DNA of 64,000 nt from Heterodontus francisci (taxonomy: Eukaryota): positions 32,070,432 through 32,134,431 of the forward strand of contig NC_090411.1 in assembly GCF_036365525.1 (NCBI RefSeq), read 5' to 3'. How positions within the stretch are numbered: the stretch's first letter is position 1; every line of letters starts with the position of its first letter. Made by a program: the position numbers and the translations under genes. The notes under the pieces are model-generated. The model did not search any database. It had not been told where the DNA came from and saw only the letters and a program-made list of their open reading frames with translations. Below are positions 1 through 59,510 of this stretch, piece after piece.

Positions 1-429
1 TTGGTGTATTTTATTTTGGGGTAAAAATAGAGTCTATGATCGACCGTATTGGTAACTGGGTAAACATTTAAATATATGTTGTGACCTGTGGAGAAGTGGA
101 ACTAGAAAAAACAATGCCCTCCTCCCACCTCTGTCAGAACAATATATAGAGAGAAACTATTTTCTCTGGTGGGGCAGTCCAGGACAGGGGCTATAATCTG
201 AATATTAGAACTAGACCATTCAGGGGTGATGTTAGGAAACATTTCTTCACAAAAAGGGATATGGAAATCTGGAATTCTCTCCCCCAAAATGTTGACATCA
301 ATTAAACATTTCAAAACTAAAACTGTTAGATTTTTGTTAGGTACAGGTATGATGCAATATGGATCCAATGCAGGCAAATGTCCTTAAGTGACAAACCATG
401 ATCTAATTGAATGGTGGAACAGGCTTGAG

Positions 430-723
430 GGGCTGATTGGCTTCCTCCTGTTCCTATGTTCCAATCACAGTATAATCATCCAAACCTGCCTGTATTCCAC
501 AGCTCTCATTGTCGCTGGGTCCAACCCCCACAGCCTGACGACATTGTTAACTGGTGCCTGGATTCAATAACTATTCCTGACTGGCTACCTGGAATTGTCA
601 ATCATCATTAATGATGTCATTCCCTGTTTGAATGCAGGCTGTCCCAACGGTACAAATACAAGAGCTTGTGCAGGAAACAGTTACATTGTTGTTTGAACTT
701 AGCTTCTGTTAGTAGTAAAGATT
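430..723 (+). promoter_or_regulatory. Ferritin proximal promoter and short 5'UTR (homologous block precedes all 11 copies)
   Basis: Conserved block TCAATCATCATTAATGATGTCATTCCCTGTTTGAATGCAGGCTG with CRE/ATF-like TGATGTCA (612-619), TATA-position TACAAATA (651-658) and CCAAT motifs near 433-466. The TATA position is at 5612, 11340, 18149, 24768, 31124, 37242, 43654, 48084, 54036 and 57372 in the other copies. Confidence 0.7.
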
Positions 724-3525
724 ATGATGGCATCTCAAGTGTGTCAGAACTACCACAAGGACTGTGGAGATGCTGTTAACAAGCAAATCAACCTGGAGCT
801 CTATTCCTCCTATGTTTATCTTTCCATGGTGTGTATTGTTTTCTTGGCGTTCTGTTTCAAAGTTAAGACTGGGATTTCAATGTATTTTGAGTAGCTAGAA
901 TTTCTGTAGGTCTCACAGCTCCAGCGACCTGGGTTCAATTCTGGGTACTGCCTGTGTGGAGTTTGCAAGTTCTCCCTGTGTCTGCGTGGGTTTCCTCCGG
1001 GTGCTCTGGTTTCCTCCCATATGCCAAAGACTTGCTGGTTGATAGGTTAATTGGCCATTATAAATTGCTCCTAGTATAGGTAGGTGGTAGGGAAATATAG
1101 GGACAGGTGGAGATGTGGTAGGAATATGGGATTAGTGTATGATTTAGTATAAATGGGTGGTTGATGGTCAGCACAGACTCTGTAGGTCGAAGGGCCTGTT
1201 TCAGTGCTGTATTTCTAAACTAAAACTAAATATTAATTGGGTTTATAATGTATCTTTCTAGTTCTCCTAGACTTAAATCTGTGAATACCCTTGAAACAGG
1301 GACTCTATTCCTTGCTCTGTAATATTTATGTCCAATTTTGAAAGTAACTCCAGTTCTGTGTAGTTTCCAATAGAGGATTCACGATCATGTATAAACCTAT
1401 TCAACTTGAATGGCAACAATGAAGTTTAGTGACTAGTTAGTGGAACACTGTCTGACTAGTTCTGGTCTGTCTTTCCCCCTTTGTAAATGAGTAAATCCTG
1501 TGGTGCTGAATTCTTTTGTTTGAGTAATGAATTTGCATGAAGCAGTAATTGAAAAGTCTCATTCAGTCCAATAAGACTTTTAGATCACTTGTCTCTTCAT
1601 TGGTGGACGAAGGATGTCCTGCTGATAAATGTAGTTTAAATGCTGAAATGAAACTTGGATCCAAATAGTGTTACTGCTTTTAGTAATGTCACTGGGAGGA
1701 GCATTTCATCATGGTTAGTATTTTACAATATTAACTTGAAAAACCAAGCCCCTTAATTGAAGAAGATTCTTTTGAGATAAAGAATGGATGATTTACTAGG
1801 ATGTTATTTTTAACGTGACCATGAATGATATTTGGGTCTGACCTCTCCCTTTCCATTTTTGCCTCTACCTGCAGTCCTATTACTTTGACCGGGATGATGT
1901 TGCCCTGCGTCACTTTGCTGAGTTCTTCAAGGAGCAGTCACATGAGGAACGGGAGCACGCTGAGAAACTGATGACATTCCAGAATAAACGTGGAGGCCGG
2001 ATCATCTTGGAGGACATCAAGGTTAGATTTAATAAGCCGCTCCCTTCAACAGATTGGACTGCAGTTTCCATTCTATCGGATAAAAGCAAAATACTGCAGA
2101 TGCTGGAAATCTGAAATAAAAACAAGAAATGCTGGAACCACTCAGCAGGTCTGGCAGCATCTGTGAAAAGAGAAGCAGAGTTAATGTTTTGGGTCGGTGA
2201 CCCTCCTTCGGAAATCCGGAATGTTAACTCTGCTTCTCTTTCCACAGATGTTGCCAGACCTGCTGAGTGGTTCCAGCATTTCTTGTTTTTATTTCAGATT
2301 TCCAGCATCTGCAGTATTTTGCTTTCATCCTATGTTCCTTTATTCTAATAATGTCAGTACTCAATCTATCTAGAGTTTAATGAGTAAAATTTCTAGTGTT
2401 GGTGAGTTGGTATGACTGACCTTTGTCTCCTATATTTATAAAATCAATAAATGGATTTTCAGAAGGAACAACGTCTGCTTTGTCAACTATTGGCTGAAAC
2501 ATACAGTGCTTAACTAGGTAACAGTCTTGAGAATGTGGGCCACAGCTGTAGATGTCCCTTAAATGTAGTTGAGGATTATAAAGGAGAAAAAGAAAATTTT
2601 GCATATTTGGGGTAATTGGGATTGGAGCTTTGGCCAAAAATGGCAGTGAACTGATCCAGTGTCCTGTAATGGTCTGTCAACCCAGTGATTAAACCCCATC
2701 CCTCATAGTATTGGGGTGCACAGATTGTCTTTGTTACTGCTAACATTGTTGACCTTGAGCATAACATCCCTTGGACTTTGCACTCCCACTAAAAAGACTA
2801 CTATTCTGTTCCAGAAGCCAGAGCAGGATGAGTGGAGCAATGGTCTGGAGGCAATGCAGAGAGCTCTGCAGATGGAGAAGGATGTGAACCAGAGTCTGCT
2901 GGATCTGCACAAACTCTCCACTGGCAACACTGACCCTCATGTAAGTTAATATTGGAATGAGTTTTCAGGTTTGAAGGTGATGATTAGAATCTACCCTTAA
3001 CTCTGGTAGAATTCCATAAGTTTTTTTTTTGTCTTATTTAAAAAACCAAGACATCCACACTAGATCTTGATCACTGAACAGTTTGCAAGGTACTTGGTTT
3101 CTCTGGCATCAATCTTGACTTGACTCCCAGTTTAATGGAATTGATTTGCCACATGTGGGTAAATTTTGGCCTTGTCTGGCTAAATATATCCACAGAATCT
3201 GAATGATTTCCTTCTGTGCTGACCACTTGGCCCACTGCCTGTGCTTCTTTCTCCAGAGAAAGTCTCGCTCCCATGTGCAGTACTTGTGCTATTATCCCAG
3301 TGCAAATAAAAATCTTATCTAATGAAGATTCTTGCTTTTTTAAGCTAACTATACTCGCCTGTTTCTCTTATGTTCTAGTTGTGTGACTTCCTGGAGACCC
3401 ATTACTTGGATGAGCAAGTGAAGATGATCAAGAAGCTTGGAGATCACATCACCAACCTGAAGAGACTGGGAGCTCCTGACAATGGCATGGGAGAGTACCT
3501 GTTTGACAAGCACACGCTGAGTTAA
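724..3525 (+). CDS. fth1: Ferritin heavy/middle-type subunit, copy 1 (A-type), 174 aa
   Basis: Exons 724-828, 1875-2021, 2815-2940, 3379-3525, all [71 protein letters not shown].../[26 protein letters not shown].../[15 protein letters not shown]...DKHTLS*. Ferroxidase ligands equivalent to human FTH1 E27, Y34, E61, E62, H65, E107, Q141 are present. AATAAA at 3606. The symbol is family-level; orthology (H versus M) is not established. Confidence 0.95.
911..1230 (+). mobile_element. V-SINE (HE1-like), 5'-truncated, in intron 1 of copy 1
   Basis: B-box GGGTTCAATTC, V-domain TGTGTGGAGTTTGCA..TTCTCCCTGTGTCTGCGTGGGTTTCCTCCGGGTG, and a CR1-derived tail GGGCCTGTTTCAGTGCTGTA..CTAAAC. Absent from intron 1 of copies 3, 5, 6 and 8. 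Confidence 0.8.
2078..2330. mobile_element. Penelope terminal-repeat-derived hairpin in intron 2 of copy 1
   Basis: About 110-bp inverted arms (AAAAGCAAAATACTGCAGATGCTGGAAATCTG.../...CAGATTTCCAGCATCTGCAGTATTTTGCTTT). Same sequence family as the end of the GIY-YIG element at 34871. Confidence 0.8.
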
Positions 3526-5430: not shown

Positions 5431-5694
5431 CACAGAATAATCTTGTAAACCAACCTGCATTCCACATCCCTGATTGGCTCTGGGTATCTCACCCCACCCA
5501 CTGCTCCTTAATTGGTGTCTGGAGACATGAACGATTCCTGACTGGCGATCGGGGATTGTCAATCATCATTGGTGATGTCATTCCCTGTTTGACTGCAGGC
5601 TGATCCAGTTGCATAAATACAAGAGCTTGTGAGGGAAGTGGTTAGATTGCTGTTGTTGTGTTTGATTTAACTTCTGTCAATATTAGAAGTGAAG

Positions 5695-7664
5695 ATGGTT
5701 TCCCAAGTGTGACAGAACTACCACAAGGACTGTGAGGATGCTGTTAACAAGAAGATTAACCTGGAGCTCTATTCCTCCTATGTTTACCTGTCCATGGTGA
5801 GTTTTGTATGTTTTGGGGTCCTAATTCAAAATTCAGGCTGTGACTTCATTGTATGCTGTTGTTTAGTGAATTGGCTTTTGGATGTATCTCAATAGCTCTC
5901 CCTAGACTTAATCCAGTGGATTATATTTAATAGTAATTCTGTAGAAGGTCTCATTAACAGACTGCTCCTGGCTCTGTAGTTGTCTTATTCAGAGATATTT
6001 TATACCTGAAACCAGCTCCATGGTTCCATGAAGCTTGTAATTGAGGATTCATCTTGAAGTATTAACTTGGTCAAATTTGTAACTTGGATGACAACAATTA
6101 ACTTTAATTGGGTGACTCGTGAGTGAAATATGGACTGGCTTTCTCTTTTTACTAATTGAGTGAAATTCTTTGAATCCTCTGTCACGGAACCTGGATCTTG
6201 GTACTTGATTGTGCCAAAATGTTAAACTGCTGAATCTGGAAGGTTTTACTTTTTTTTAATTTAAATCCCTGAATTGGGGAAAGGGATTGGTGAAGGGGGG
6301 TGGGGGGGGGAGGGAAGAATGTCCCACTGAAATTTGAGCTTTCAACCTGCACTTGGACCTCTAATAGATTCCACCAAAAAATATCATGGATCCCTCTTGT
6401 CTAATTTTAGCCACTTGCCTTGTTTCTACTTCATGAGGAGGGACTTTCAACCTTTTCAGAAAAGATTAATGAAGCCAATTGTGCTTTGTGTAAGAATCAT
6501 ACTTTCTCCCTTAAACTGTAAATGCTTTCAAAAGCAAGGTATTGAAGTCATGAATGGGTATTTCATCTACTATGATACAGCCACCATTTTTGATGTGACC
6601 ATGGAGGGAATTTTGGATGTGACCTGGCTTTCTTCAATTTTTTTTTTTTGTCTCTACCTGCAGTCCTATTACTTTGATTGGGATGATGTTGCCCTGTGTC
6701 ACTTTGCTGAGTTCTTCAAGGAGCAGTCACATGAGGAACGGGAGCACGCTGAGAAACTGCTGAAATTCCAGAATAAACGTGGAGGCCGAATCATCTTGGA
6801 GGACATCAAGGTTGGATTCAATGAATGAGTGACCTCCTGTCTGGATCCCTGTAAATTGATGCTTTAGAAAGTATTTGAAAGAATTGATTCCATGGTTTAA
6901 TGCAGTAATTGTATACATTTGTGACCCACTAGTTGCTTTTCCCCATTGTTCACCTTCTACTTTCTCATGTGTTTTTGTTTTAATCCATTGTAAGTGAACT
7001 GTCTGACTTTCCTCTTCAGAAGCCAGAGCAGGATGAGTGGAGCAATGGTCTGGAGGCAATGCAGAGAGCTCTGCAGATGGAGAAGGATGTGAACCAGAGT
7101 CTGCTGGATCTGCACAAACTCTCCACTGGCAACACTGACCCTCATGTAAGTTCCTAACATTGCAATTTTTCATGCATTGGTGATATTGGAATCTGCCCTG
7201 CACTCTACATTGGTAAACTTCTGTGTCAGTTTGTTTTTCATTTTTAGATTTTTGTTTTTGGGCCAAGAAGCCATCTACGCTGTAGACCTGGATCATTAAA
7301 CTGTTCCCAAGGCACTGTGTATCTGCAGCATCAAAATGTTTCTTGTGCAGTCCATTCCCTGTTTTATTAAAATTGGTTTGCCATTTTTGGGTAATTCTGC
7401 TCTTGTCTAGTTAAATGTGCCCATGTCACACTGTCCCAATTCCAAACCGGTGTAATTTCCCTTCTGGAGAAGATCCTCATTAAACACCTGTTTGGCATTT
7501 TCTATTTCATGTTCTAGTTGTGTGACTTCCTGGAGACTCTCTACTTGGAGGAGCAAGTGAAGATGATCAAGAAGCTAAGAGATCACATCACCAACCTGAA
7601 GAGACTGGGAGCCCCTGACAATGTCATGGGAGAGTACCTGTTTGACAAGCTCACCCTGAGTTGA
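5695..7664 (+). pseudogene. Ferritin copy 2 (B-type), premature stop at codon 6
   Basis: Exons 5695-5796, 6664-6810, 7020-7145, 7518-7664. ATG GTT TCC CAA GTG TGA (stop 5710-5712; TGT in most paralogs). Private missense changes: Q>K, R>W, H>L, D>E, G>R, G>V. Confidence 0.88.
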
Positions 7665-11150: not shown

Positions 11151-11412
11151 CAATCACAGTCTAATCATCCAAACCTGCCTGAATTCCACAGCTCTCATTG
11201 TCTCTGGGTCCAACCCCCACAACCCGTCTACATTGTTAATTGGTGCCTGGATTCATGAGCGATTCCTGACTGGCTACCTGGAATTGTCAATCATCATTAA
11301 TGATGTCATTCCCTGTTTGAATGCAGGCTGTCCCAGTAGCATAAATACAAGAGCTTGGGTAGGAAGCAGTTAGATTGTTGTTTGAACTTAGCTTCTGTTA
11401 GTAGTAAAGATT

Positions 11413-14037
11413 ATGATGGCCTCTCAAGTGTGTCAGAACTACCACAAGGACTGTGAAGATGCTGTTAACAAGCAAATCAACCTGGAGCTCTATTCTTCTT
11501 ATGTTTATCTTTCCATGGTGTGTATTGCTTTCTGGGGGTCCTATTTCAAAGTTAAGATTGGAATTTCAATGCATTTTGAGTAGCTAGAATTTTTCTGGGC
11601 CAATCAGTTGGGTTTATTATCTATCTCTGTAGTTCTCCCTGGTCTTAAATCAGTGAACACCCTTGAAACAGGGACTCTGTTCCTTTCTCTGTAATCTGTG
11701 TCCAATTTTGAAAGTAACTCTCAGGTTCCATGAGGTTTCCAACTGAGGATTCATGTTGAAGATGTATAAACCTAGTCACATTTTCCCACTTAAATGATAA
11801 TTTACATTTAGTGACTAGTTAGTAAACATTGTTTGACTCGTTCTGGACTGTCTTTTTCCCCCTTTGTTAATGAATCAATCCTGTGGTGCTGTCCTTTTTA
11901 TAGGAGGGGTAATTATCTTGCATGAAGCAGTAGTCTACAGGTCTTTCTCTACTGAATGAAGAGAATAAAATCTCACTCACTTCAATCTTCATTGGGGGGA
12001 GCAAAGGATGTCCTACTGTTTAGTATAATTTGAATGCTGAAATGTAATTCTGATCCAAATAGTATTATTGCTTTTAGTGATCTTGCAGGGAGGGGTGTTT
12101 CAACAATTTTCCATTTTACAGTATAAACTTGAAAAGCTAAGCCCCTTTTAATTGAAAGCAAATTCTTTTGAGGTGAAGGTGATTTATCTACCATGTAATT
12201 ACTACCATTTTTCATAGTCATGAATAAGACTTGGGTAGTTGAGTAAATCCTGTAGTGTTAAGCTCTTGTCTGAGGAGTAGTGATATTACATGAAGCAGTA
12301 ATCTTAAAAATCTCATTCTACTGAATGCAACTTCTCTTCTATCACTTCATTGGGGGACAAAGGATGTCCTGCTGATAACTATAGTTTGAGTGCCTGAAAT
12401 GCAACTTTGATCCAAACAGTATTACTGCTTTTTTTTTTTTGTAATGTTACAGGGAGGGGCATTTCAACATTTAACATTTTACAGCCGAATTTTGGAAACC
12501 CAAGCCCCTTTAATTGAAAGCAAATTCTTTTGATATAAAGAATGGGTGATTTATTTACCATACCATTTTTGACATTGCCATAAATGAGATTTGGGTCTGA
12601 CCTCTCTTCCCTTTCCATTTTGTCTCTACCTGCAGTCCTATTACTTTGACCGGGATGATGTTGCCCTGCGTCACTTTGCTGAGTTCTTCAAGGAGCAGTC
12701 ACATGAGGAACGGGAGCATGCTGAGAAACTGATGAAATTCCAGAATAAACGTGGAGGCCGAATCATCTTGGCAGACATCAAGGTTGGGATCTTATCTTCA
12801 CGGAATCCATGATCTAACTTGGATACTTTCAGGCTATGTTCCTTATTCTAATGTCAGTACTCAATCCAGAGTTTAATGAGTAAAATTTCTAGTGTTGGTG
12901 AGTTGGTATGACTGACCTTTGTCTCCTATATTTATAAAATCAATAAATGGATTTTCAGAAGGAACAATGTCTGCTTTGTCAACTATTGGCTGAAACATAG
13001 TGCTTAACTAGTTAACAGTCTTGAGAATGTGGGCCACAGCTGTAGATGTCCCTTAGATGTAGTTGAGGACCAAAAAGGAGAAAAAGAAAATTTAGCATAT
13101 TTGGGGTAATTGGGATTCGAGCTTTGGCCAAAAATTGCAGTGTAGAGGCAATGAACTGATCCAGTGTCCTGTAATGGTCTGTCAACCCAGTGATTAAACC
13201 CCATCCCTCATAGTATTGGTGCACAGATTGTCTTTGCTGCTAACATTGTTGACCTTGAGCATAACATCCCTTGGACTTTGCACTCCCACTAACAGGACCA
13301 CTATTCTGTTCCAGAAGCCAGAGCAGGATGAGTGGAGCAATGGTCTGGAGGCAATGCAGAGAGCTCTGCAGATGGAGAAGGATGTGAACCAGAGTCTGCT
13401 GGATCTGCACAAACTCTCCACTGGCAACACTGACCCTCATGTAAGTTAATATTGGAATGAGTTTTCAGATGGATTGAATGTGATAATTGGAATGTGCCTT
13501 TAACTCTGGTATTGTTCCATATGTTTTTGGGCCTTTTATATTTATATATTAAACAGTGTGAATGGCTTTTTTTTTTTATTTGGATCACCAAACTGTTCAC
13601 AAGGTACTTGGTTTCTCTGGCATCAATCTTTTGTAATCACTTTGTGTAATGGATTTGACTTGCCATATTCTGGGTAAATTTTGGTCTTGTCTGGCTAAAC
13701 TTATTCACAGAATAGAATGATTTCCTTCTGTGCTGACCACTTTGCCTGTTGCCTGTGCTTGTTCTCTGGAGCAAGTCTCGCTCCCATCTGCAGTACTTGC
13801 ACCATTATCCTAGTGCAAATAAAATCTTATCGAATGAAGTTACTTGCATTTTTTAAAGCTAACTATACTTGCCTGTTTCTCATGTTCTAGTTGTGTGACT
13901 TCCTGGAGACTCACTACTTGGATGAGCAAGTGAAGATGATCAAGAAGCTTGGAGATCACATCACCAACCTGAAGAGACTGGGAGCCCCTGACAATGGCAT
14001 GGGAGAGTACCTGTTTGACAAGCACACGCTGAGTTGA
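11413..14037 (+). CDS. fth1: Ferritin copy 3 (C-type), 174 aa
   Basis: Exons 11413-11517, 12636-12782, 13315-13440, 13891-14037; intact frame; RIILADIK variant; ends HTLS*. Confidence 0.95.
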
Positions 14038-17639: not shown

Positions 17640-18221
17640 ATATATAGAGAGAAACTATTTTCTCTGGTGGAGCAGTCCAGGACAGGGGCTATCATCTGAA
17701 TATTAGAACTAGACCATTCAGGGGTGATGTTAGGAAACATTTCTTCACAAAAAGGGATATGGAAATCTGGAATTCTCTCCCCCAAAATGTTGACATCAAT
17801 TAAACATTTCAAAACTAAAACTGTTAGATTTTTGTTCGGTACAGGTATGATGCAATATGGATCCAATGCAGGCAAATGTCCTTAAGTGACAAACCATGAT
17901 CTAATTGAATGGTGGAACAGGCTTGAGGGGCTGATTAGCTTCCTCCTGTTCCTATGTTCCAATCACAGTATAATCATCCAAACCTGCCTGTATTCCACAG
18001 CTCTCATTGTCTCTGGGTCCAACCCCCACAGCCTGACTCCATTGTTAACAGGTGCCTGGATTCAATAACTATTCCTGAGTGGCTACCTGGAATTGTCAAT
18101 CATCATTAATGATGTCATTCCCTGTTTGAATGCAGGCTGTCCCAACGGTACAAATACAAGAGCTTGTGCAGGAAACAGTTACATTGTTGTTTGAACTTAG
18201 CTTCTGTTAGCAGGAAAGATT

Positions 18222-21004
<2,783 letters not shown>

Positions 21005-22576: not shown

Positions 22577-24840
22577 AGAAAACCGAGAGTAGAGATAATG
22601 GGTATGTACTCTAATTGGCAGGCTACGATGAGTCATCTCTCCCAGGGATCTGTACCTGGGCCTCAGTTTTTCATTACATTTTTAAATGACATGAAGGAAT
22701 CGAGAGCCATATATCCAAGTTTGCTAATGACACTAAGTTACTTAGGTGTTACAGTAGGTGGAGTAAATTTGAGCAGAAAATTGAAAAGCGACATTGATAG
22801 ATTGTGAGTAGCCAAAAGTGTGATCGATAAATTTCAATGTCAGAGCGAGGACAGAGAGACATAAATCAGAATATTTTCCAAATGGTGAGGAGCTAGGAAC
22901 TGTGGAGGAGCAGAGAGAGTTAGGGGTCCGTGTAAATTACTAAAAGCTAGTGGACTAGTACATAAATGAATTAAAATGTCTAATAGTCTGTTAGTCTTCA
23001 TCTCAAGGAGTCTGTAAAACATAGGGTGGATGTTTTGCTATATTTGTATAAAGCCGTGGTTAGATCACATCTGGAGTACTGTGTTCAGCTTTGATATATT
23101 GACCTTGGTGGGAGTGCAGCACAGATTCACCAGAATGATACCAGGGATAAAAGGGTTAAATTACGAGGACAGTTTGCATGAATGACTTTTGTATTCTTCA
23201 AGTATAGAAGAGTAAAGAATTAATATAATTGATATGTTGAACATGAATAATAGATATGATAAGGTATCGTTGTGACGGTGTTGCTATATTTCTCGTTGGT
23301 TTTTGTTGAGGACTCATATTTTAGATTTATGGACATTGTTTTATTTTGGGAAAATTGAAAAGGATTGTATGGATTTTTTTTCACTGGGGTCATTGAAAGG
23401 GCACTGAGAGGACTTGTTGTAAACAACACTCACTGGAAGTTACCTGTCTTCAGATAAATATCAGCAGGGGCTTTTTGACTTGGAGAAGATATTTACAGAG
23501 AAGTGACAGGTCAAAATGTACAGGGGTCAGGAGGCTTGACTCTCGAGATATTGTTTTTGGTTTTGCTTTGAACTGTGTATTGGGATATAAACTGTTTCAA
23601 GGCAATTGGAGAAAACCAGCCAAGAGAGCAGTCACCATCAGCATCCTCTTCCATCTTTTTGAGAACTTCCTGTGAATTAAGTGTAAGAAATAGAGAAACT
23701 GATGCTGCATGTCTCCTGAAAAGGCTGCCAGAAACCCCTGACGGTGCATCTCACCTGGAACACCAGCCAAACTGATCTTCAATGTCCCCTGAAAAGAACT
23801 ATTCTGGAAAGATCCAAGTGGCAGCAGTCTAAGGGTATTTAGGACGGAAAACCAAAAAAGGGACAACTGACATCTTTCCATATCTTCTCTTTTATCTGCA
23901 AGAATTAGCAAGTATCAGGCCAAAGTATTCCTTTTTGTCTTTTTTTTGTAACAGAGTTCTAAAAAGAAAATCTTTTTTTTTCTGGTTCTCCAGTGTGTGT
24001 GTGTATGTTTGTGTGAGGGGCTAGGGTAAAAGGGAACTTTCATTTTTCAATCGGTGTGTTATTGCTTTGCTTTGTTACTGGTTAATTCTTGTTTTATAAT
24101 AAATTGATAATTTTGTTATTAAATAAACCTGGTTAGTCTATTTATACTGGGGTAAAAATAGAGTATATGATTGACCAAATCAGTAACTGGGTAAACATTT
24201 AAATACATGTTGTGACCTGTGGAGAAGTGGGATTAGAAAAAAATTGCACTCCTCCCACCTCGGTCAAACAGAAAATACAGAGGAACAATTTTCTCTGGTG
24301 ACATTGTCCAGGACAAGGGGTATAATCTTAAAATTAGAGCTAGACCATTCAGGGGTGATGTCAGGAAGCATTTTCTCACAAAAAGTGAAATGAAAAGCCG
24401 CAACTGTCTCCCCCAAAATGTTCAGATCAATTAAATATTTCAAAAGTGAGATTGTTAGGTTTGGGTATGAAGAAATATGGATCCAATGCAGGCAAAATGC
24501 ATTTAGATACAAACCATGATCTAATTGAATGGTGGAATAGGCTTGAGGGGCTGATTGGCCTCCTCCTGTTCCTATGTTCCAATCACAGTCTAATCATCCA
24601 AACCTGCCTGAATTCCACGGCTCTCATTGTCTCTGGGTCCACCCCCACAACCCGTCTACATTGTTAATTGGTGCCTGGATTCATGAGCGATTCCTGACTG
24701 GCTACCTGGAATTGTCAATCATCATTAATGATGTCATTCCCTGTTTGAATGCAGGCTGTCCCAGTAGCATAAATACAAGAGCTTGGGTAGGAAGCAGTTA
24801 GATTGTTGTTTGAACTTAGCTTCTGTTAGTAGTAAAGATT

Positions 24841-27089
24841 ATGATGGCCACTCAAGTGTGTCAGAACTACCACAAGGACTGTGAAGATGCTGTTAACAAG
24901 CAAATCAACCTGGAGCTCTATTCCTCCTATGTTTATCTTTCCATGGTGTGTATTGCTTTCTGGGGGTCCTATTTCAAAGTTATGATTGGAATTTCAATGC
25001 ATTTTGAGTAGCTAGAATTTTTCTGGGCCAATCAGTTGGGTTTATTATCTATCTCTGTAGTTCTCCCTGGTCTTAAATCAGTGAACACCCTTGAAACAGG
25101 GACTCTGTTCCTTTCTCTGTAATCTGTGTCCAATTTTGAAAGTAACCCTCAGGTTCCATGAGGTTTCCAATTGAGGATTCATGTTGAAGATGTATAAACC
25201 TAGTCACATTTTCCCACTTAAATGATAATTTATATTTAGTGACTAGTTAGTAAACATTGTCTGACTAGTTCTGGACTGTCTTTTTCCCCCTTTGTTAATG
25301 AATCAATCCTGTGGTGCTGTCCTTTTTATAGGAGGGGTAATTATCTTGCATGAAGCAGTAGTCTACAGGTCTTTCTCTACTGAATGAGGAGAATAAAATC
25401 TCACTCGCTTCAATCTTCATTGGGGGGAGCAAAGGATGTTCTACTCTTTAGTATAATTTGAATGCTGAAATGTAATTCTGATCCAAATAGTATTATTGCT
25501 TTTAGTGATCTTGCAGGGAGGGGTGTTTCAACAATTTTCCATTTTACAGTATAAACTTGAAAAGCTAAGCCCCTTTTAATTGAAAGCAAATTCTTTTGAG
25601 ATTAAGAATGGGTGATTTATTTACCATACCATTTTTGACATGGCCATAAATGAGATTTGGGTCTGACCTCTCTTCCTTTTCCATTTTGTCTCTACCTGCA
25701 GTCCTATTACTTTGACCGGGATGATGTTGCCCTGCGTCACTTTGCTGAGTTCTTCAAGGAGCAGTCACATGAGGAACGGGAGCACGCTGAGAAACTGCTG
25801 AAATTCCAGAATAAACGTGGAGGCCGAATCATCTTGGCAGACATCAAGGTTGGGATCTTATCTTCATGGAATCCATGATCTAACTTGGATACTTTCAGGC
25901 TATGTTCCTTATTCTAATAATGTCAGTACTCAATCTAGAGTTTAATGAGTAAAATTTCTAGTGTTGCTATGACTGACCTTTGTCTCCTATATTTATAAAA
26001 TCAATAAATGGATTTTCAGAAGGAACAATGTCTGCTTTGTCAACTATTTCATGAAACATACAGTGCTTCACTATGTAACAGTCTTGAGAATGTGGGCCAC
26101 AGCTGTAGATGTCCCTTGGATGTAGTTGAGGATTATCAAGGAGAAAAAGAAAGTTTAGCGTAATTGGGATCAGAGCTTTGGCCAAAAATGGCAGTGCAGA
26201 GGCAATGTATTGATCCAGTGTCCTGTAATGGTCTGTCAACCCAGTGATTAAACCCCATCCCTCATAGTATTGGGATGCACAGATTGTCTTTGTTACTGCT
26301 AACATTGTTGACCTTGAGCATAACATCCCTTGGACTTTGCACTCCCACTAACAGGACCACTATTCTGTTCCAGAAGCCAGAGCAGGATGAGTGGAGCAAT
26401 GGTCTGGAGGCAATGCAGAGAGCTCTGCAGATGGAGAAGGATGTGAACCAGAGTCTGCTGGATCTGCACAAACTCTCCACTGGCAACACTGACCCTCATG
26501 TAAGTTAATATTGGAATGAGTTTTCAGATGGATTGAATGTGATAATTGGAATCTGCCCTTAACTCTGGTAGCATTCCATATGTTTTTGGGCCTTTTATTT
26601 TTTTTAAAAAGGCATTCACACTGTTGATCTGGATCCCCAAACTGTTCACAAGGTATTTGGTTTCTCTGGCATCGATCTTTTGTATTCACTTTGTGTAATG
26701 GATTTGACTTGCCATATTCTGGGTAAATTTTGGTCTTGTCTGGCTAAACTTACTCACAGAATAGAATGATTTCATTCTGTGCTGACCACTTGGCCTGCTG
26801 CCTGTGCTTGTTCTCTAGAGCAAGTCTTGCTCCCATGTCCAGTACTTGCACCATTATCCTAGTGTAAATAAATAATCTTATCGCATGAAGTTACTTGCAT
26901 TTTTTTAAAGCTAACTATACTTGCCTGTTTCTCATGTTCTAGTTGTGTGACTTCCTGGAGACTCACTACTTGGATGAGCAAGTGAAGATGATCAAGAAGC
27001 TTGGAGATCACATCACCAACCTGAAGAGACTGGGAGCTCCTGACAATGGCACGGGCGAGTACTTGTTTGACAAGCACACGCTGAGTTGA
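24841..27089 (+). CDS. fth1: Ferritin copy 5 (C-type), 174 aa
   Basis: Exons 24841-24945, 25702-25848, 26374-26499, 26943-27089; MMATQ start and NGTGEY variant. Confidence 0.94.
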
Positions 27090-30368: not shown

Positions 30369-31196
30369 GTGTGAGGGGCTAAGATAAAAGGGAACTTTCA
30401 TATTTCAATCTGTGTGTTACTGGTCTTGTTTTATAATTAACTGATAATTTTGTTGTTTATTAAAGAAACCTGGTTGGTGTATTTTATTTTGGGGTAAAAA
30501 TAGAGTCTATGATTGACCATATTGGTAACTGGGTAAACATTTAAATATATGTTGTGACCTGTGGAGAAGTGGAACTAGAAAAAACAATGCCTTCCTCCCA
30601 CCTCAGTCAGAACAGTATATGGAGAGAAACTATTTTCTCTGGTGGAGCAGTCCAGGACAGGGGCTATAATCTGAATATTAGAACTAGACCATTCAGGGGT
30701 GATGTTAGGAAACATTTCTTCACAAAAAGGGATATGGAAATCTGGAATTCTCTCCCCCAAAATGTTGACATCAATTAAACATTTCAAAACTAAAACTGTT
30801 AGATTTTTGTTCGGTACAGGTATGATGCAATATGGATCCAATGCAGGCAAATGTCCTTAAGTGACAAACCATGATCTAATTGAATGGTGGAACAGGCTTG
30901 AGGGGCTGATTGGCCTCCTCCTGTTCCTATGTTCCAATCACAGTATCATCATCCAAACCTGCCTGAATTCCACAGCTCTCATTGTCGCTGGGTCCAACCC
31001 CCACAGCCTGACTCCATTGTTAACTGGTGCCTGGATTCGTGAACTATTCCTGACTGGCTACCTGGAATTGTCAATCATCATTAATGATGTCATTCCCTGT
31101 TTGACTGCAGGCTGTCCCAGCAGTACAAATACAAGAGTTTGTGCAGGAAGCAGTTACATTGTTGTTTGAACTTAGCTTCTGTTAGTAGTAAAGATT

Positions 31197-33595
31197 ATGA
31201 TGGCATCTCAAGTGTGTCAGAACTACCACAAGGACTGTGAAGATGCTGTTAACAAGCAAATCAACCTGGAGCTCTATTCCTCCTATGTTTATCTTTCCAT
31301 GGTGTGTATTGTTTTCTTGGGGTCCTATTTCAAAGTTAACATTGGAATTTCAGTGCATTTTGAGAATCTAGAATTTTTCTAGGCCCATCAATTGTGTTTT
31401 ATAATCTATTTCTGTAGTCCTCCCTAGACTTAAATCAGTGAATACCCTTGAAACAGGGACTCTATTCCTTGCTCTGTAATATTTTTTCAATTTGGAAAGT
31501 GACTCCAAGGTACCAATAGAGGATTCATGTTGAAGATGTATAAACCTAGTTATCTTGGATGGCAACAATTAATTTTAGTGACTAGTTAGTGAAACATTGT
31601 CTGATTAGTTCTGGCCTTTCTTTATTTCCCCCTTTGTAAATGAATAAATTTTGTGGTGTTGAGCTCTTTTGTATGAGGAATAATGGTCTTGCATGAAGCA
31701 GTCATCTACTGAATGAAGAGTGGGGGAGGGGGAAGAAATCTCTATGTTTAAATATTCATTGGGGGAACAAAGGATGTCCTACTTAACTATAGTTTGAATG
31801 CTGAATACAACTTTGGTCCAAATAGTATTACTGCTTTTTGTAATCGTCACAGGGAGGGGCATTTCAACACATTTGGTGTTTTACAGCCTAAACTTGAAAA
31901 GCCAAGCCCCTTTAATTGAAAGCAAATTCTTTTTGATGTAAAGAATGAGTGATTTATCTACCATGATATTACTACCATTTTTGACATGGCTGCCAATGAG
32001 ATTTGGGTCTGGTTTCTCTTCCTTTCCATTTTGTCTCTACTTGCAGTCCTATTACTTTGACCGGGATGATGTTGCCCTGTGTCACTTTGCTGAGTTCTTC
32101 AAGGAGCAGTCACATGAGGAACGGGAGCACGCTGAGAAACTGATGCAATTCCAGAATAAACGTGGAGGCCGAATCATCTTGGAGGACATCAAGGTTGGGT
32201 TTTTAACATGAAGGAGTCTATGATCTAACTTGGATATTTTCAGAGAATGTTCCTTATTCTAATAACTTCAGTTCTCCATCTGGTCAGATTAATGAGTAAA
32301 ATTTCTAGTGTTGGTGAGTGGCTATTGGATGAGTTGGTATGACTGATCTTTGCCTCTTCATTAGATATAAGGTCAATAAATGGATATTCAGAAGGAACAA
32401 CTTCTGCATTGTAAAGTATTGGCTCAAACATAAATGTCAGTTATACAGCACAGAAACAGGCCCTTTGGCCCATCTGTGCTGGCCATCAAGCACCTATCGC
32501 TTTGAATCCTATTTTCCAGCACTTGGCCCGTAGCCTTGTATGTTATGGTGTTTCAAGTACACATCTAAACTCTAAAATGAGGGTTCCTGCATCTACTGCC
32601 CCTTCAGTTCATGTGTTCTAGATTCCAACTGCCCTCTAGGTGAAAATATCTTTCCTCAAATCCCCTCTAACCCTCCTGCCTCCTTGCATTAAGTCTATGC
32701 CCATGGTTATTTTTCCCTCTGCTAAGGGAAAGGTTTCTTCTATCAATGCCCCTCATAATTTTGTTATCCATTTGCAATGGTCCCTCATAATATTGGGGTG
32801 CACAGATTATTTTTGTTGTCACTAACCCTGTTGACCTTGAGCATAACATCCCTTGGACTTTGCACTCCCACTAACAGGACCACTATTCTGTTCCAGAAGC
32901 CAGAGCAGGATGAGTGGAGCAATGGTCTGGAGGCAATGCAGAGAGCTCTGCAGATGGAGAAGGATGTGAACCAGAGTCTGCTGGATCTGCACAAACTCTC
33001 CACAGGCAACACTGACCCTCATGTAAGTTAATATTGGAATGAGTTTTCAGGTTTGAAGGTGATAATTAGAATTTAACCAAAACTCTGGTAAAATTCCATA
33101 GGTTTTTGGCTTTAATAAAAAAAAAAATTCATCCACACTGTAGATCTGGATCACTAAACTGTTCACAAGGTACTTTCTTTCTCTGGCATCAAACTTTTGT
33201 GTTCACTCTCCATGTAATAGATTTGACTTGCCGCATCTGGATAAATTTTGAACTTGTCTGGCTAAACTTATCCACAGATTCAGAATGATTCCCTGTTGCC
33301 TGTGCTTGTTCTCTTGAGCAAGTCTCGCTCCCATCTACAGTACTTTCACCATTATCCCAGTGCAAATAAAAAATCTCATCGAAGGAAGATACTTGGTTTT
33401 TTTTAAAGCTAACTATACTCAACTAGTTTCTTTTTTTTAATGTTCTAGTTGTGTGACTTCCTGGAGACTCACTACTTGGATGAGCAAGTGAAGATGATCA
33501 AGAAGCTTGGAGATCACATCACCAACCTGAAGAGACTGGGAGCCCCTGACAATGGCATGGGAGAGTACCTGTTTGACAAACACATGCTGAGTTGA
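31197..33595 (+). CDS. fth1: Ferritin copy 6 (A-like), 174 aa
   Basis: Exons 31197-31301, 32047-32193, 32897-33022, 33449-33595; ends KHMLS*. Confidence 0.94.
32440..32760 (-). mobile_element. CR1-type LINE 3' fragment in intron 2 of copy 6
   Basis: TACAGCACAGAAACAGGCCCTTTGGCCCA is the reverse complement of the CR1 3' end seen at 38820-38840. It replaces the intron segment seen in paralogs. Confidence 0.65.
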
Positions 33596-34967: not shown

Positions 34968-35004
34968 AGTTAACGTTTCGGGTCAGTGACCCTTCTTCGG
35001 AACT
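34968..35004 (-). ncRNA. Minimal hammerhead ribozyme-like motif (Penelope-associated)
   Basis: Minus strand AGTT-CCGAAGA-A-GGGTCACTGACCC-GAAACGTT-AACT: stem I AGTT/AACT, core variant CCGAAGA, stem II, GAAA and palindromic stem III ACGT. Mirror copy on + at 36299-36335. Confidence 0.6.
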
Positions 35005-35715: not shown

Positions 35716-37325
35716 CTCCGCTCAGTCCGCAAGCAGGACCCTGAGCTTCCGGTTGCTTGCCATTTCAACACTCCCCCCTGCTCTCATGCTCACATCTCTG
35801 TCCTGGGATTGCTGCAGTGTTCCAGTGAACATCAACGCAAGCTCGAGGAACAGCATCTCATCTATCGATTAGGCACACTACAGCCTGCCGGTCTGAACAT
35901 TGAGTTCAATAATTTCAGAGCATGAGAGCCCCCCACTTTACTTTCATTTTTAGTTATTTTTTCTTCCTTTTTTTTTTGGCATTCCTTTTTACATTTTTTA
36001 CAATCTTTTTTTGTATTTATTTCAGTTCATCTTAGTTTGTTCAGTTTGCTCACCCACTGTTTTTTTCAGGTTGTTTTTCTTCAGGTTTGCACTTGCTGAT
36101 GTTCAATATTCAGTATATTCACACCTAATCTGTACTAATGCTTTGTCTTTCAACACACCATTAACATATTGTTTGCCTTTGCTCCGTGACCTTTTGGTCA
36201 GCTATGTGGCCTGGTCCAATCTGCACCTTCTCCTTTGTTATCTCTTGCCCAACCCCCACCTCACTTGTTTATAATCTGTGACTTTTCTAATATTTGTCAG
36301 TTCCGAAGAAGGGTCACTGACCAGAAACGTTAACTCTGCTTCTCTTTCCACAGATGCTGCCAGACCTGCTGAGTGAATCCAAGATAAATCAGATGTTTTC
36401 TGGATAGTGAGGAGTTCAGAACTGTGAAGGAGCAGCAGTGAGATTGAAGGTTCCATGTACAGAAATTATTAAAAACTAGTGGACAGAGACAAAAAAAATT
36501 GGAAAAGCAAATACAATGTTAGTCTCTCAAGAGGGCTGGAAATCAAAGTGGTGGAGGTTATGTTACAGTTGTATAAAGCTCGGGGTTAACCACATCTGAA
36601 GTACTGTGTTCATTCAGTTCTATTGGCCTTGGTGGGGGCACAGCACTGATTCACCAGAATGACACCAGGGCTAAATGACTTAAATTATAAGGTCACTTTG
36701 CACAGTCTGTATTCCCTGGAGTATTGAAGATTAAGGGATGATTATAATTGAGGTGTTGAAGATAATTAATGGGTTTAATAATGTAGATAGAAACTATTTC
36801 CTCTGGAACAGATTCAGATTAGGCAATTCATGGATGATATTAGGAAGCATTTCTTCACAACAAGGAATATTGAAATCTGGAACTCTCTTCCCCAAAATGG
36901 ATCAAGTCAACATTTCAAAATTGCTGTTAGGTTTTTGTGAGTTAAGGTCATGAAATCATGAACCAAGGCAGGGAAATGGCATTAAGACACAGAGCAGCCA
37001 TGATCTAATTGAATGGTGGAACAGACTTGAATTGGCCTCCTCCTGTTCCTTTGTTCCAATCACAGAATAATCTTGTAAACCAACCTGCATTCCACATCCC
37101 TGATTGGCTCTGGGTATCTCACCCCACCCACTGCTCCTTAATTGGTGCTTCGTGGCATGGAAGATTCCTGACTGGCTATCAGGGATTGTCAATCATCATT
37201 GGTGATGTCATTCCCTGTTTGAATGCAGGCTGATCCAGTTGCATAAATACAAGAGCTTGTGAGGGAAGTGGTTAGATTGCTGTTGTTGTGTTTGAATTTA
37301 ACTTCTGCCAATATTAGAAGTGAAG

Positions 37326-40300
37326 ATGGCCTCCCAAGTGTGTCAGAACTACCACAAGGACTGTGAGGATGCTGTTAACAAGCAGGTTAACCTGGAACTC
37401 TATTCCTCCTATGTTTACCTGTCTATGGTGAGTTTTGTATTTTTTGGGGTCCTAATTCAAAATTCAGGCTGTGACTTCATTGCATTCTGTTGGTCAATGA
37501 ATTGGCTTTTGGATGTATCTCAATAGCCCTCCCTAGACTTAATCCAGTGGATTATGTTTAACAGGAATTCTGTAGAAGGTCTCATTAACAGACTGCTCCC
37601 TGCTTTCTAAGAGTTGTCTTATTCTGAGATATTTTATACTTGAAACCAGCTCCATGAAGCTTGTAATTGAGGATTCATCTTGAAATATTAACTTGGTCAA
37701 ATTTGTAACTTGGATGAAAACAAATTTAATTGGGTGACTAGTGAGTGAAATATGGACTGGTTTTGCCCAATTTTCTCTCTTTTACTAATTGAGTGAAATT
37801 CTCTGAATCCTCTCTGTTATGGAACCTGGATCTTGGTATTTGATTGTGCCCAAGTGTTAAACTGCTGAATGTGAAAGGCTTTACTCTTTTTTTTTTTTTT
37901 TTCTTCATTCCTGATATTGGACCTGAATTGGTGGAGCGGTAGAGGGAGGAGGGAAACAGGTCCTACTGAAATTTCAGCTTTCAACCTGCAACTGTTTTTG
38001 CGAGTGGAAGCCTGTGACCAGTAGTGTACTGCAGGGATCGGTGCTAGGACCCTTGCTGTTTGTAGCGTACATCTAATGATTTAGATGTGACTATAGGAGG
38101 TATAAGTTTGCAGATGACACAAAAATTGGTGGTGTAAATAGTGAGGAGGAAAGCCTTAGATTACAGGATGATATAGATGGGTTGTTAAGATGGGTGGAGC
38201 AGTGGCAAATGGAATTGAATCCTGAGAAATGTGAGGTGATGCATTTTGGGAGGACTAATAAGGCAAGGGAATATACAATGGATGGTAGGACCCTGGGAAG
38301 TACAGAGGGTCAGAGGGACCTTGGTGTACTTGTCCATGGATCATTGAAGGCAGCAGCACAGGTAGATAAAGGTGGTTAGGAAGGCATATGGGATACTTGC
38401 CTTTATTAGCCAAGGCATAGAATATAAAAGCAGGGAGATTATGATGGAGCTGTATAAAATGCTAGTTAAGCCACAGCTGGAGTAATGTGTACAGTTCTCG
38501 GCACCCCACCATGGGAATGATGTGATTGCTCTGGAGAGGGTGCAGAGGAGACTCACCAGGATGTTGCCTGGGCTGGAGCATTTCAGCTTTGAAGAGAGGC
38601 AGAAATGGCTAGGGTTGTTTTCCTTAGAGCAGAGAAGTGGGGGGTGGTGGGGGGGGGGGGGGCATGGAATATGATTGAGGTATACAAAATTATAAACCCT
38701 CAACATTTTAAGAAGTATTTAGGTGAGCATGTGAAATGCCAGAGCATACAAGGCGACAGGCCAAGTTCTGGAAAATGGGATTAGAATAGTTAGGTGCTTG
38801 ATGGCCAGCATGGACACGATGGGCCTGTTTCTGTGCTGTATGACTCTGACTTGGGCCACTAATACTTTAGCCCAAAAAATATTACGAATCCCTTGTGTCT
38901 AATGTTACCACTTGCCTTGCTTCTACTTCATCGGGAGGGACTTTCAACACTTCCAGAAAAGATTAATGAAGCCAATTGTGCTTTATTTGTCGGAAACATA
39001 CTTTCTCCATTAAATTGTAAATTCTTTCAAAAGCAAGGTATTGTAGTTGTGAATGGATAATTCATTTACCACGATACTGCTGTCATTTTTGATGTGACCA
39101 TGGAGAAGATTTGGATCTGACCTGGCTTTCTCCATTTTTGTCTCTACCTGCAGTCCTATTACTTTGACCGGGATGATGTTGCCCTGCGTCACTTTGCTGA
39201 GTTCTTCAAGGAGCAGTCACATGAGGAACGGGAGCACGCTGAGAAACTGATGAAATTCCAGAATAAACGTGGAGGCCGAATCATCTTGGAGGACATCAAG
39301 GTTGGATTGCAACTGAGGAGTCTTCTGTAATGTCATTTTTAGGTTGCTTAAAAGGTGTTTCCTCATGAATGCCCTTAAGTTCCCACTCCAGTGGCATTTA
39401 ATGAGTAAAATTGCTAGTGTTAGTGAAATGAAGATGGGTGTTATGATGGGCCACCCTAGCTAATGAATATAGGAAGATCACTAAATGTGGATGCTCAGAA
39501 GAAATGAGTTTGGGCACCATATACTAACTATTGGCTCAAATCGTGTGGCGCTTGGCTAGGAAAGGACTCTGGGGATTGTGGATCACAGCTGTAATCTTGC
39601 ATGGGCAGAGTAATTTGAAGATTTTTAAAAATGCAGTGTAACTGGGAATAGAGTTTCTTGACTCTACCCTGCCATTTTTAGCCAATTAACTGATCTCATG
39701 GTCTCCACCCTTCATACTTCCTCATAGTATTGAGGTGGACAGATTAACTTCTGCTGCTTTTAACCCTATTGACCTTGAGCATAACATCCCTTGGACTTTG
39801 CACTCCCACTAACAGGACCACTATTCTGTTCCAGAAGCCAGAGCAGGATGAGTGGAGCAATGGTCTGGAGGCAATGCAGAGAGCTCTGCAGATGGAGAAG
39901 GATGTGAACCAGAGTCTGCTGGATCTGCACAAACTCTCCACTGGCAACACTGACCCTCATGTAAGTTCCTAACATTCCAACTTTTCATGAGTTGGTGATA
40001 TTGGAATCTGCCCTTCACTCTACATTGGTAAAATTCTGTCAGTTTGTTTTTCACTTTCAGATTTTATTTGATTTTGGGCCAAGAAGCCATCTACACTGTA
40101 GACCTGGATCACTAAACAGTTCCCAAGGCACTTTGTATCTGCAGCATTAAAATGTTTCTTGTGCAGTCCATTCCCTGTTTATTAAAATTGATTTGTCAAT
40201 TTTGGGTAATTCTGCTCTTGTCTGATTAAATGTGCCCATGTCACACTATCCCAATACCAAAAAAGAGTAATTTCTCTTCTGGAGAAGATCCTCACTAAAC

Positions 40301-40476
40301 ATCTGTTTGGCATTTTCTGTTTCATCTAGTTGTGTGACTTCCTGGAGACTCACTACTTGGATGAGCAAGTGAAGATGATCAAGAAGCTTGGAGATCACAT
40401 CACCAACCTGAAGAGACTGGGTGCCCCTGACAATGGCATGGGAGTGTACCTGTTTGACAAGCACACGCTGAGTTGA
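37326..40476 (+). CDS. fth1: Ferritin copy 7 (B-type), 173 aa
   Basis: Exons 37326-37427, 39154-39300, 39835-39960, 40330-40476; GMGVYLF variant; CR1 insertion in intron 1. Confidence 0.94.
37991..38848 (+). mobile_element. Younger 5'-truncated CR1 (HER1-like) LINE in intron 1 of copy 7
   Basis: [36 protein letters not shown] and RDLGV remnants, with 3' end GGGCCTGTTTCTGTGCTGTATGACTCT. Absent at the equivalent site in copies 2 and 9. Confidence 0.85.
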
Positions 40477-43400: not shown

Positions 43401-43723
43401 ATGATCTAATTGAATGGTGGAACAGGCTTGAGGGGCTGATTGGCCTCCTCATATTCCTATGTTCCAATCACATTATAATCATCCAAACCTGCCTGTATTC
43501 CACAGCTCTCATTGTCTCTGGGTCCAACCCCACAGCCCGGCTACATTGTTAATTGGTGCCTGGATTCATGAGTGATTCCTGACTGGCTACCTGGAATTGT
43601 CAATCATCATTAATGATGTCGTTCCCCTATTTGAATGCAGGCTGTCCCAGCGGTATAAATACAAGAGATTGTGCAGGAAGCAGTTAGATTGTTGTTACTT
43701 AGCTTTTGCTAGTAGTAAAGATT

Positions 43724-45952
43724 ATGATGGCCTCTCAAGTGTGTCAGAATTACCACAAGGACTGTGAGGATGCTGTTAACAAGCAAATCAACCTGGAGCT
43801 CTATTCCTCCTATGTTTATCTTTCCATGGTGTGTATTGTTTTCTTGGGTCCTGTTTCAAAGTTAAGACTGGAATTTCAATGCATTTTGAGTAACTATAAT
43901 TTTTCTAGGTCAATCAATTGGGTTTATAGTCTATCTCTGTAGTTCTCCCTTGACTTAAATCAGTGAATACCCTTGAAACAGAGACACTATTCCTTGTTCT
44001 GTAATATGTACTCAATTTTGAAAGTAACTCCCATGTTCCATGAAGTTTCCAATCGAGGATTCATGTTGAAGATGTATAAACTTTGTCAACTTTTCCAACT
44101 TGAATGGCAACCATTAAGTTTAGTGACTAGTTTGGTGAAACGTTGACTAGTTCTGGCCTGTCTTTCCTCCTTTAGTAAATGAGTAAATCCTGTGTTGCTG
44201 AACTCTTTTGCATGAAGCAGTAATCTAAAAGTCTTATTCCACTGAATGAAACTTTTCAATCACTTGCATCTTCATTGGGGACAAAGTATATCCTGCTGAT
44301 AATTGTAGTTTAAATGCTGAAATGGAACTTTGATCCAAATAGTATTACTGCTTTTTGTTGTGTTACAGGGAGGAGCATTTCAACATAGTTAGTGTTTTAT
44401 AGTATTAACTTGTAAAACCAAGCCCCTTAATTGAAAGCAAATTCTTTTGAGATCAAGAATGGATGATTTATTTACCATGATGTTGCTACCATTTTTGATG
44501 ATCCTATAAATCAGATTTGGGTCTGATATATCTTCCCTTTACATTTTGCTTTTACCTGCAGTCCTATTACTTTGACCGGGATGATGTTGCCCTGCGTCAC
44601 TTTGCTGAGTTCTTCAAGGAGCAGTCACATGAGGAACGGGAGCACGCTGAGAAACTGATGAAATTCCAGCATAAACGTGGAGGTCGTATCATCTTGGAGG
44701 ATATCAAGGTTGTGTTCTTAAAGGAGTCTATGATCTAACTTTGATACTTTCAGCGAATGTTCCTTATTCTAATAACTTCAGTTCTCGACCTAGAGATTAA
44801 TGAGTAAAATTCCTAATGTTGATGACTTGGTATGACTGGCTGATCTTTCTCTCCTATAGATATCAAGTCAATAAATAAATATTCAGATGGAACAATTTCT
44901 GTACTGTAAACTATTGGCTCAAACATATGGTGCTTAACTAGGTAACAGTCTGGAGAATGTGGGCCACAGCTGTAGACTTTCCATGGATGGAGGATTTTGA
45001 GAGGAAATTGGAACATATTTGGGGTAATTGGGATTGGAGCATCTGCCAAAATGGCAGAGCAATGAACTGATCATGTCCTGTAATGGTCTGTCATCCCAGT
45101 TGTTAAACCACATCCCTCACAATGCTACTTCATAGTATTGGGGTGCACAGATTATCTTTGTTGCTAACCCTGTTGACCTTGAACATAACATCCCTTGGAC
45201 TTTGCGCTCCCACTAAAAAGACTACTATTCTGTTCCAGAAGCCAGAGCAGGATGAGTGGAGCAATGGTCTGGAGGCAATGCAGAGAGCTCTGCAGATGGA
45301 GAAGGATGTGAACCAGAGTCTGCTGGATCTGCACAAACTCTCCACTGGCAACACTGACCCTCATGTAAGTTAATATTGGAATGAGTTTTCAGGTTTGAAG
45401 GTGATCATTAGAAACTACCCTTAACTTTGGTAGAACTCCATATGTTTCTTGGGTTTTTAAAAAAAAAAAGCCATTCACACTGTTGATCTGGATCACTAAA
45501 CTATTCACAAGGTACTTGGTTTCTCTGGCATCAATCTTTTGCATTTGTTCTGTGTAATGGAATTGACTTGCCACATGTGGGTAAATTTTGGTCTTGTCTG
45601 GCTAAACATATCCACAGGATCAGCATGATTTCCTTCTGTGCTGACATCTTGGCCTGCTGCCTGTGCTTGTTCTCTAGAGCAAGTCTCACTCCCATGTACA
45701 GTCCTTTCACCATTATCCCAGTGCAAATAACATTCTTATCCAATGAAGATTATTGCTTTTTTTTTAAAGCTAACTCTACTCTGCTAATTTCTCTTTATGT
45801 TCTAGTTGTGTGACTTCCTGGAGACTCACTACTTGGATGAGCAAGTGAAGATGATCAAGAAGCTTGGAGATCACATCACCAACCTGAAGAGACTGGGAGC
45901 TCCTAACAATGGCATGGGAGAGTACCTGTTTGACAAGCACACACTGAGTTGA
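43724..45952 (+). CDS. fth1: Ferritin copy 8 (A-like), 174 aa
   Basis: Exons 43724-43828, 44562-44708, 45239-45364, 45806-45952; FQHKRGG and APNNG variants; canonical TATAAATA at 43654. Confidence 0.94.
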
Positions 45953-48167: not shown

Positions 48168-50467
<2,300 letters not shown>

Positions 50468-53395: not shown

Positions 53396-54102
53396 ACCAG
53401 AGAGTTAGAGAACATCTGAATCTCATTCAATCAGATTCAAATATTCTTTAGCTCATTGAAAGTTGACCATAAAAGGACTCATCTAATATACAGAATTATC
53501 AGGCAGGAAATGACCAGCTAGTCCATTAAGCCTGCCCCAAAACACACTACAGTAAATGGAGACGTGTCTGTGGGTGACACTGTATTCAGTAATGTTCACT
53601 CCCTCTCATTCTCACATTTCCATCTCTCTGTGCAATGGTTGGTTTGCAAATTCACTCAAGCCCACTTGATTGCTTTCAATATTACATCAGCTCCACAGTT
53701 CCTTGCAATTTACAAACTTGGTCAGATTATGAAAAGCCACTCCAGCAAAAGTAACAAATTATCATTTAACTCAAATGAGAGCATTAAACAACGAGACATT
53801 CTCAGATTTGAAGAAGGTCAAGGAATCCAAAAGCAGTGACATCATCGAGACTAATCTCCCAATCCTGTCTGCCATCCAAAGCTCTGATTGGCTCTGGGCA
53901 TCAACCCTTCCCCCACACCCCCTCTCTTTTTTTAATTGGTGCCTGGATTCATGGGAGATTCCTGATTGACAATCCCTGATAGCCAATCATCATTAGTGAT
54001 GTCATTCCCTACTTGTATGCAGGCTGGTCCAGTGGTATAAATACAAGAGCTTTGCTCAGTCCTGGAGCTTTCTTGGTGGTTCTGAGTATTTTGAGTCTAG
54101 AG

Positions 54103-54678
<576 letters not shown>

Positions 54679-57447: not shown

Positions 57448-59510
<2,063 letters not shown>

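Follow-up and report, generated by a model that had tools for sequence, protein, structure and literature searches.

A head-to-tail ferritin array in Heterodontus francisci with predicted short leaders that carry no canonical iron-responsive element

The window, a 64-kb stretch of Heterodontus francisci DNA, holds 11 ferritin loci that run head-to-tail on the + strand from 651 to 59510, a span of 59 kb (Table 1). Ten of them have four coding exons and three GT..AG introns, which is the layout of vertebrate cytosolic H/M-type ferritin genes. Nine loci are intact and predict proteins of 173-176 amino acids; the other two are broken, locus 2 by a stop codon and locus 10 by loss of its 5' part. 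Locus 10 keeps its TATA-like site at 54036 and has no ferritin start. The six type A copies (loci 1, 3, 4, 5, 6 and 8) begin with a tandem in-frame ATGATG, found in locus 1 at 724-729.

Table 1. Coordinates of the ferritin loci and of the 5' features of locus 1, in window positions.
Feature	Position	Strand	Description
Conserved promoter block, locus 1	476..666	+	~190 nt, about TATA-175 to +15; present in 11/11 loci
TATA-like octamer, locus 1	651..658	+	TACAAATA, non-consensus
TATA-to-ATG interval, locus 1	659..723	+	no IRE
Locus 1	724..3525	+	intact, four exons, leader type A
Locus 1 coding exons	727-828, 1875-2021, 2815-2940, 3379-3525	+	AATAAA at 3606
Locus 2	5612..7664	+	leader type B; pseudogene, TGA as codon 6 (5710-5712)
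Locus 3	11340..14037	+	intact, type A, ATG 11416
Locus 4	18149..21004	+	intact, type A, ATG 18225, exon 4 from 20858
Locus 5	24768..27089	+	intact, type A, ATG 24844
Locus 6	31124..33595	+	intact, type A, ATG 31200
Locus 7	37242..40476	+	intact, type B, ATG 37326
Locus 8	43654..45952	+	intact, type A, ATG 43727
Locus 9	48084..50467	+	intact, type B, ATG 48168
Locus 10	54036..54678	+	5'-truncated, lacks exons 1-2; promoter block joins the middle of exon 3 at ~54095
Locus 11	57372..59510	+	intact, leader type C, ATG 57448

All ten copies examined keep the seven ferroxidase-site positions E24, Y31, E58, E59, H62, E104 and Q138, with positions and numbering that we take from the human H chain. These residues match those of the control ferritin loci L003 and L005-L007 and differ from those of the L-type controls L002 and L004, the H, M and L labels of the control loci being assigned in this analysis. 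Purifying selection acts on the nine intact genes, and pN/pS among these nine copies is 0.155. The window proteins are 69-76% identical to the teleost-like H/M controls and 55-56% identical to the L-like controls. In a 10-row tree that leaves out locus 4 they form a clade of their own (96/98), at an open fork with L005 and the clade of L003, L006 and L007.

Even loci with introns that cannot be aligned share a 100% identical exon 3 (for example 2815-2940, 39835-39960 and 58865-58990). At synonymous sites the divergence is 0.017 (1.7%) in exon 3 versus 0.222 (22%) in exon 1. Because exon 3 is nearly uniform while its flanking introns cannot be aligned, we infer exon-limited gene conversion, and the divergence values suggest a gradient along the gene.

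Other elements lie between and beside the genes. Upstream of locus 7, a small inverted-repeat element encloses an apparent near-perfect palindrome of 1.46 kb (34922-36381; arms of about 670 nt, 99% identical, around a centre of ~60 nt), which may be real or an assembly artefact. A 259-nt MITE-like element with terminal inverted repeats sits in the second intron of loci 1 and 4 (2075-2333 and 19553-19811), and related pieces are found at 34864, 52533 and 55362. On the - strand, a 629-aa open frame with a YMDD motif and 55% G+C (62113-63999) runs off the window end and looks like a young LINE reverse transcriptase bordering the array. The DNA downstream of locus 11 (59510-61440) resembles the spacers that precede loci 10 and 11 and is interrupted by this LINE, so the array may continue past the window end.

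Within the promoter block, CAATCA is present at about -52 in all 11 loci, and TGATGTCA, which we take to be CRE/AP-1-like, at about -39 in ten of them. The TATA-like octamer reads TACAAATA in three loci (1, 4 and 6), CATAAATA in five and TATAAATA in three, and it is followed by a CAAGAG-like sequence. In contrast to the remaining eight loci, loci 1, 4 and 6 (octamers at 651, 18149 and 31124), with the non-consensus TACAAATA, lack an ATTGG or TAATTG box and may have weaker promoters. Leader types A and B are 74-79% identical to type C from about -175 to TATA+13..18, and in the comparisons with locus 11 identity over -100..+15 is 0.79-0.86, whereas blastn returns no match between the introns of loci 1 and 11 or of loci 7 and 11. 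Compensatory pairs in the block number 0 of 41. That conservation ends just past the TATA-like site fits a promoter followed by an unconstrained leader; were an IRE functional there, it should be what is conserved most.

From this conserved block we infer a proximal start site, which would give a leader of ~45-55 nt. If transcription starts ~29 nt after TATA, the predicted 5'UTR of locus 1 would be about 680-726. In locus 11, an additional ATG upstream of the ferritin start (57397) falls close to where transcription is predicted to begin.

In locus 1, the stretch 659-723 leads from the octamer to the first of two in-frame ATGs (724 and 727). Counted from the first base of TATA, the conserved ATG lies 73-84 nt downstream in 10/10 loci that have exon 1. 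This compact arrangement differs from that of teleost H/M ferritins, which share the four exons and the ferroxidase residues but have an IRE, with 160-256 nt between IRE loop and ATG in the controls L001-L007. In L001, a teleost M-type ferritin gene with the same GGTATAAATACA context around TATA, the IRE loop lies 71 nt and the ATG 231 nt after TATA. DNA alignment of the window with L001 did not place the promoters in register, and a promoter motif scan of the metagenome contigs gave no match.

The leaders were searched for a canonical IRE with Rfam and with a script that applies the SIREs stem rules plus two canonical loops, the rules being taken from their source (PMC2896125). Rfam gave no match in the window at gathering score, seven matches at E<=10 and two on 600-830 alone, none of them an IRE. 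Over the full 64 kb, the script found no canonical site on the + strand and two weak canonical sites on the - strand. As for positive controls, Rfam IRE_I recovered seven of nine IRE loci (46-57 bits) and the script all nine; these loci (L001-L009) were drawn from metagenome contigs by a canonical motif and are therefore easy controls. The two control hairpins at L008 1501-1521 and L009 1264-1284 are IRE-like and pass the SIREs rule, and are not among the Rfam gathering-score matches; L009 is chimeric, joining a ferritin leader to bacterial 23S rRNA.

No canonical IRE (Rfam IRE_I, or SIREs motifs 1-2 with CAGWGH loop, 5-bp stem and C bulge) is present in any of the ten leaders, and no CAG[AT]G loop in any of the ten TATA-to-ATG intervals. 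One candidate relic in type A leaders (CATTGT..TTTGAAC) was rejected, as its 5' arm is mismatched, it fails the stem rule, and the alignment with L001 left the promoters out of register. The upstream intergenic stretches of loci 2-11 (2.1-4.1 kb) lie wholly inside the window and the script found no IRE in any of them, so a local upstream exon could not supply one. Absence by itself is expected by chance, because only 6.8% of the 76-nt windows of this DNA hold CAGTGH (93% do not), and it is meaningful only against the IRE-bearing vertebrate ferritins. We regard the IRE-less state as highly probable.

These results partly uphold the original prediction that none of 11 ferritin 5'UTRs has a canonical IRE: the absence holds in both searches, and the count becomes ten, locus 10 having lost exons 1-2. 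The TATA-to-ATG spacing that it gave as about 65-85 nt in every copy is right for the ten loci with exon 1, and the intervals do lack a CAGTG-loop hairpin, as it said. It had also considered an upstream exon bringing in an IRE, which is missing from the intergenic DNA of loci 2-11; the DNA before locus 1 is outside the window.

The leaders fall into three related types (assigned in Table 1), and the copies are not independent, so one old IRE loss is probably likelier than eleven. Type A and B leaders are still alike (0.63, a value reached by 1 of 200 shuffles). From +30 on, leader similarity to locus 11 is no higher than in shuffles in 4/4 comparisons.

Arrays of this kind have been described in other sharks. 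In the Greenland shark, a preprint counts well over a hundred copies of ferritin, which form clusters also present in the white shark, and reports ovary-specific expression for the largest cluster (Sahm et al., 2024; 10.1101/2024.09.09.611499). FTH1b is expanded in sharks generally, with 59 copies in tandem clusters, five of them consisting of exons 3-4 only, and part of the copies are transcribed in fin and blood, according to Yang et al. (2026, PNAS, PMC13214024). The window likewise has tandem near-identical ferritin genes and, in locus 10, a copy 5'-truncated in the manner of those reduced to exons 3-4; going by the description of the published clusters, the array is most likely a shark FTH1b cluster. 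'IRE' and 'iron-responsive' do not occur in the text of PMC13214024, nor 'iron-responsive' or 'UTR' in five supplements, and 'iron' does not occur in the preprint 10.1101/2024.09.09.611499. A literature search that took in few subscription papers turned up none that deals with loss of the IRE from shark ferritins, and an earlier mention in fish or amphibians is possible.

In salmon, all five H/M ferritin genes (H1, H2, M1-3) carry an IRE, and the element is even used as a mark separating real ferritin genes from pseudogenes (PMC4117605). Ferritins without an IRE are known elsewhere. The yolk ferritin of the snails Lymnaea and Biomphalaria, an egg-related ferritin, has a 5'UTR without IRE (PMC10799875). 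However, the snail protein is secreted, with a signal peptide and a 42-aa insertion, whereas the window proteins have no signal peptide, N-terminal extension or 42-aa insertion and are in register with cytosolic ferritins, so the likeness is one of analogy and not of membership. FTMT is not IRE/IRP regulated, and FTHL17 is germline-expressed and multicopy in mouse (PMC7760355). FTMT would resemble the window genes in its freedom from IRE/IRP regulation, but it is a mitochondrial retrogene with neither introns nor a TATA box, and FTHL17 is without ferroxidase activity; in the window genes the introns, a TATA-like box and the ferroxidase residues have been retained. The hadal snailfish fthl27, with 14 mostly tandem copies, is similar in arrangement and differs in its broad expression; IRE status is mentioned nowhere in the text (PMC10746142).

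We favor a model in which transcription and gene dosage govern the intact cytosolic ferritins of the array, which would serve to load oocytes or ovary with iron, and we consider this model probable, if well short of assured. An ancestral four-exon cytosolic ferritin gene would have acquired the short (~45-55 nt) IRE-less leader, and the IRE-less gene would then have been amplified head-to-tail, with the loss before the amplification. Each copy would be driven by its own proximal TATA promoter, IRP1/2 would be unable to repress the mRNA, and output would be set by promoter activity and copy number. Ferritin could in this way be stocked ahead of a rise in cytosolic iron, and the likeliest use would be the developmental loading of oocytes or ovary. 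The ovary as main site would follow by analogy from the Greenland shark data, and ferritin is abundant in vertebrate ovaries (PMC1488847). The 3'UTR gives maternal mRNA no support, since none of the 11 loci has a CPE-like site ahead of AATAAA in the 260 nt that follow the stop.

At the level of sequence, then, the release from IRP control that the original prediction had proposed is well supported, with no IRE in the leaders or in the upstream intergenic DNA of loci 2-11. Of the control by transcription and copy number that it put in place of IRP, the transcriptional part would fit the conserved promoter block. It had missed that this array type is published in sharks, that the array has two broken members among its 11, and that egg and mitochondrial ferritins lacking an IRE had already been described.

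Alternatively, the mRNAs could be IRE-less and stress could be what induces the array, in the soma and not in oocytes, to meet antioxidant, acute-phase or anti-ferroptosis needs. The CRE/AP-1-like TGATGTCA would speak for such a somatic role. Two published cases would do the same: the snailfish fthl27 copies are high in most tissues and lower ROS in cells (PMC10746142), and the authors who found shark FTH1b copies transcribed in fin and blood propose a link to ferroptosis (PMC13214024). However, the largest cluster is ovary-specific in Greenland shark data that cover multiple tissues (10.1101/2024.09.09.611499), and the expansion is found throughout sharks irrespective of lifespan (PMC13214024). 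We think a somatic role unlikely as the main explanation.

The array could also be birth-and-death debris, in which most copies have little or no activity and the IRE was left to decay once it was irrelevant. The two broken loci and the degraded TATA/CCAAT boxes in three loci would be expected of debris, and gene conversion could hold exons alike without selection on each copy. Yet nine of 11 loci are intact at the low pN/pS given above, the promoter block has stayed alike between loci with diverged introns, and 4/4 runs examined contain spliced relatives, which makes decay an improbable account of the array.

A further possibility is that transcription starts mainly somewhere other than at the TATA-like site and that splicing joins an upstream non-coding IRE exon to an AG 9-14 nt ahead of the ATG, which would make the mRNAs IRP-regulated. 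Type A and B leaders do have a T-rich tract and an AG there, with a pyrimidine fraction of 0.58-0.68. Transcript contigs from public runs bear on this point; they come from 4 of 12 listed runs, cover locus 6 and are contigs only, of presumed RNA origin. GT..AG joints connect exons 1-2 in 3/4 runs and exons 2-3 in 4/4 runs. Two spliced contigs, from two studies, extend just 38 and 34 nt 5' of the ATG, ends that are weakly compatible with a short leader and are not proof of one. In the X3 contig the match begins at 31186, right after an AG whose upstream pyrimidine fraction (0.63) is within the range of real exon-3 acceptors, and 24 further letters lie beyond this exact limit. None of the window's ten exon-1 copies explains this pattern, and a splice is here indistinguishable from the divergent leader of a related species. 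One contig of run X8 spans the promoter block (31013-31143) and reflects some upstream transcription or DNA carry-over.

The remaining evidence argues against an upstream IRE exon. The intergenic DNA before loci 2-11 being without an IRE, such an exon must precede the window, in the DNA 5' of locus 1, and be spliced across whole genes. Type C has no comparable site near the ATG (pyrimidine fraction 0.32), and conservation peaks at the TATA block and not at the AG. The M-type controls L001 and L005 are also T-rich and then A-rich before the ATG, although their genomic and cDNA-like text match, and no such joint is among those listed for the locus 6 runs. We judge an upstream IRE exon to be quite improbable.

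It is more doubtful still that a non-canonical leader hairpin binds IRP: loci 1, 4 and 6 have C-N5-CAUUGU with 4/5 upper pairs at about TATA+27, and an any-loop scan gives 13 weak stems that pass the SIREs stem rule in 8/11 loci, but the CAUUGU site fails the SIREs rule and is missing in 7/10 leaders, the 13 stems all have a mismatch or bulge, none has a canonical loop or is common to all three leader types, none is known to fit the loop list of SIREs SELEX motifs 3-18, and the leader consensus fold is just -3.3 kcal/mol.

A bolder form of the favored model would make the array a shark oocyte iron-loading system, in which one cytosolic ferritin was freed from IRP and amplified, its exons kept uniform via gene conversion, in convergence with the yolk ferritins of invertebrates. 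The published expansion would then represent egg provisioning and not ferroptosis defence or longevity. We put this form forward tentatively, and would not rate its chances as even.

Arrays of this type and IRE-less ferritins are each known already; that the two come together in a vertebrate cytosolic array whose genes have introns and intact ferroxidase sites appears to have gone unremarked. Vertebrate cytosolic ferritin mRNAs are held to be marked by their 5' IRE, a rule to which this array is an exception. The array offers mechanistic access to the gene family most expanded in sharks, which PMC13214024 discusses via ferroptosis and lifespan. If the copies are deaf to iron via IRP, their output would depend on promoter and dosage, which would fit the provisioning of eggs.
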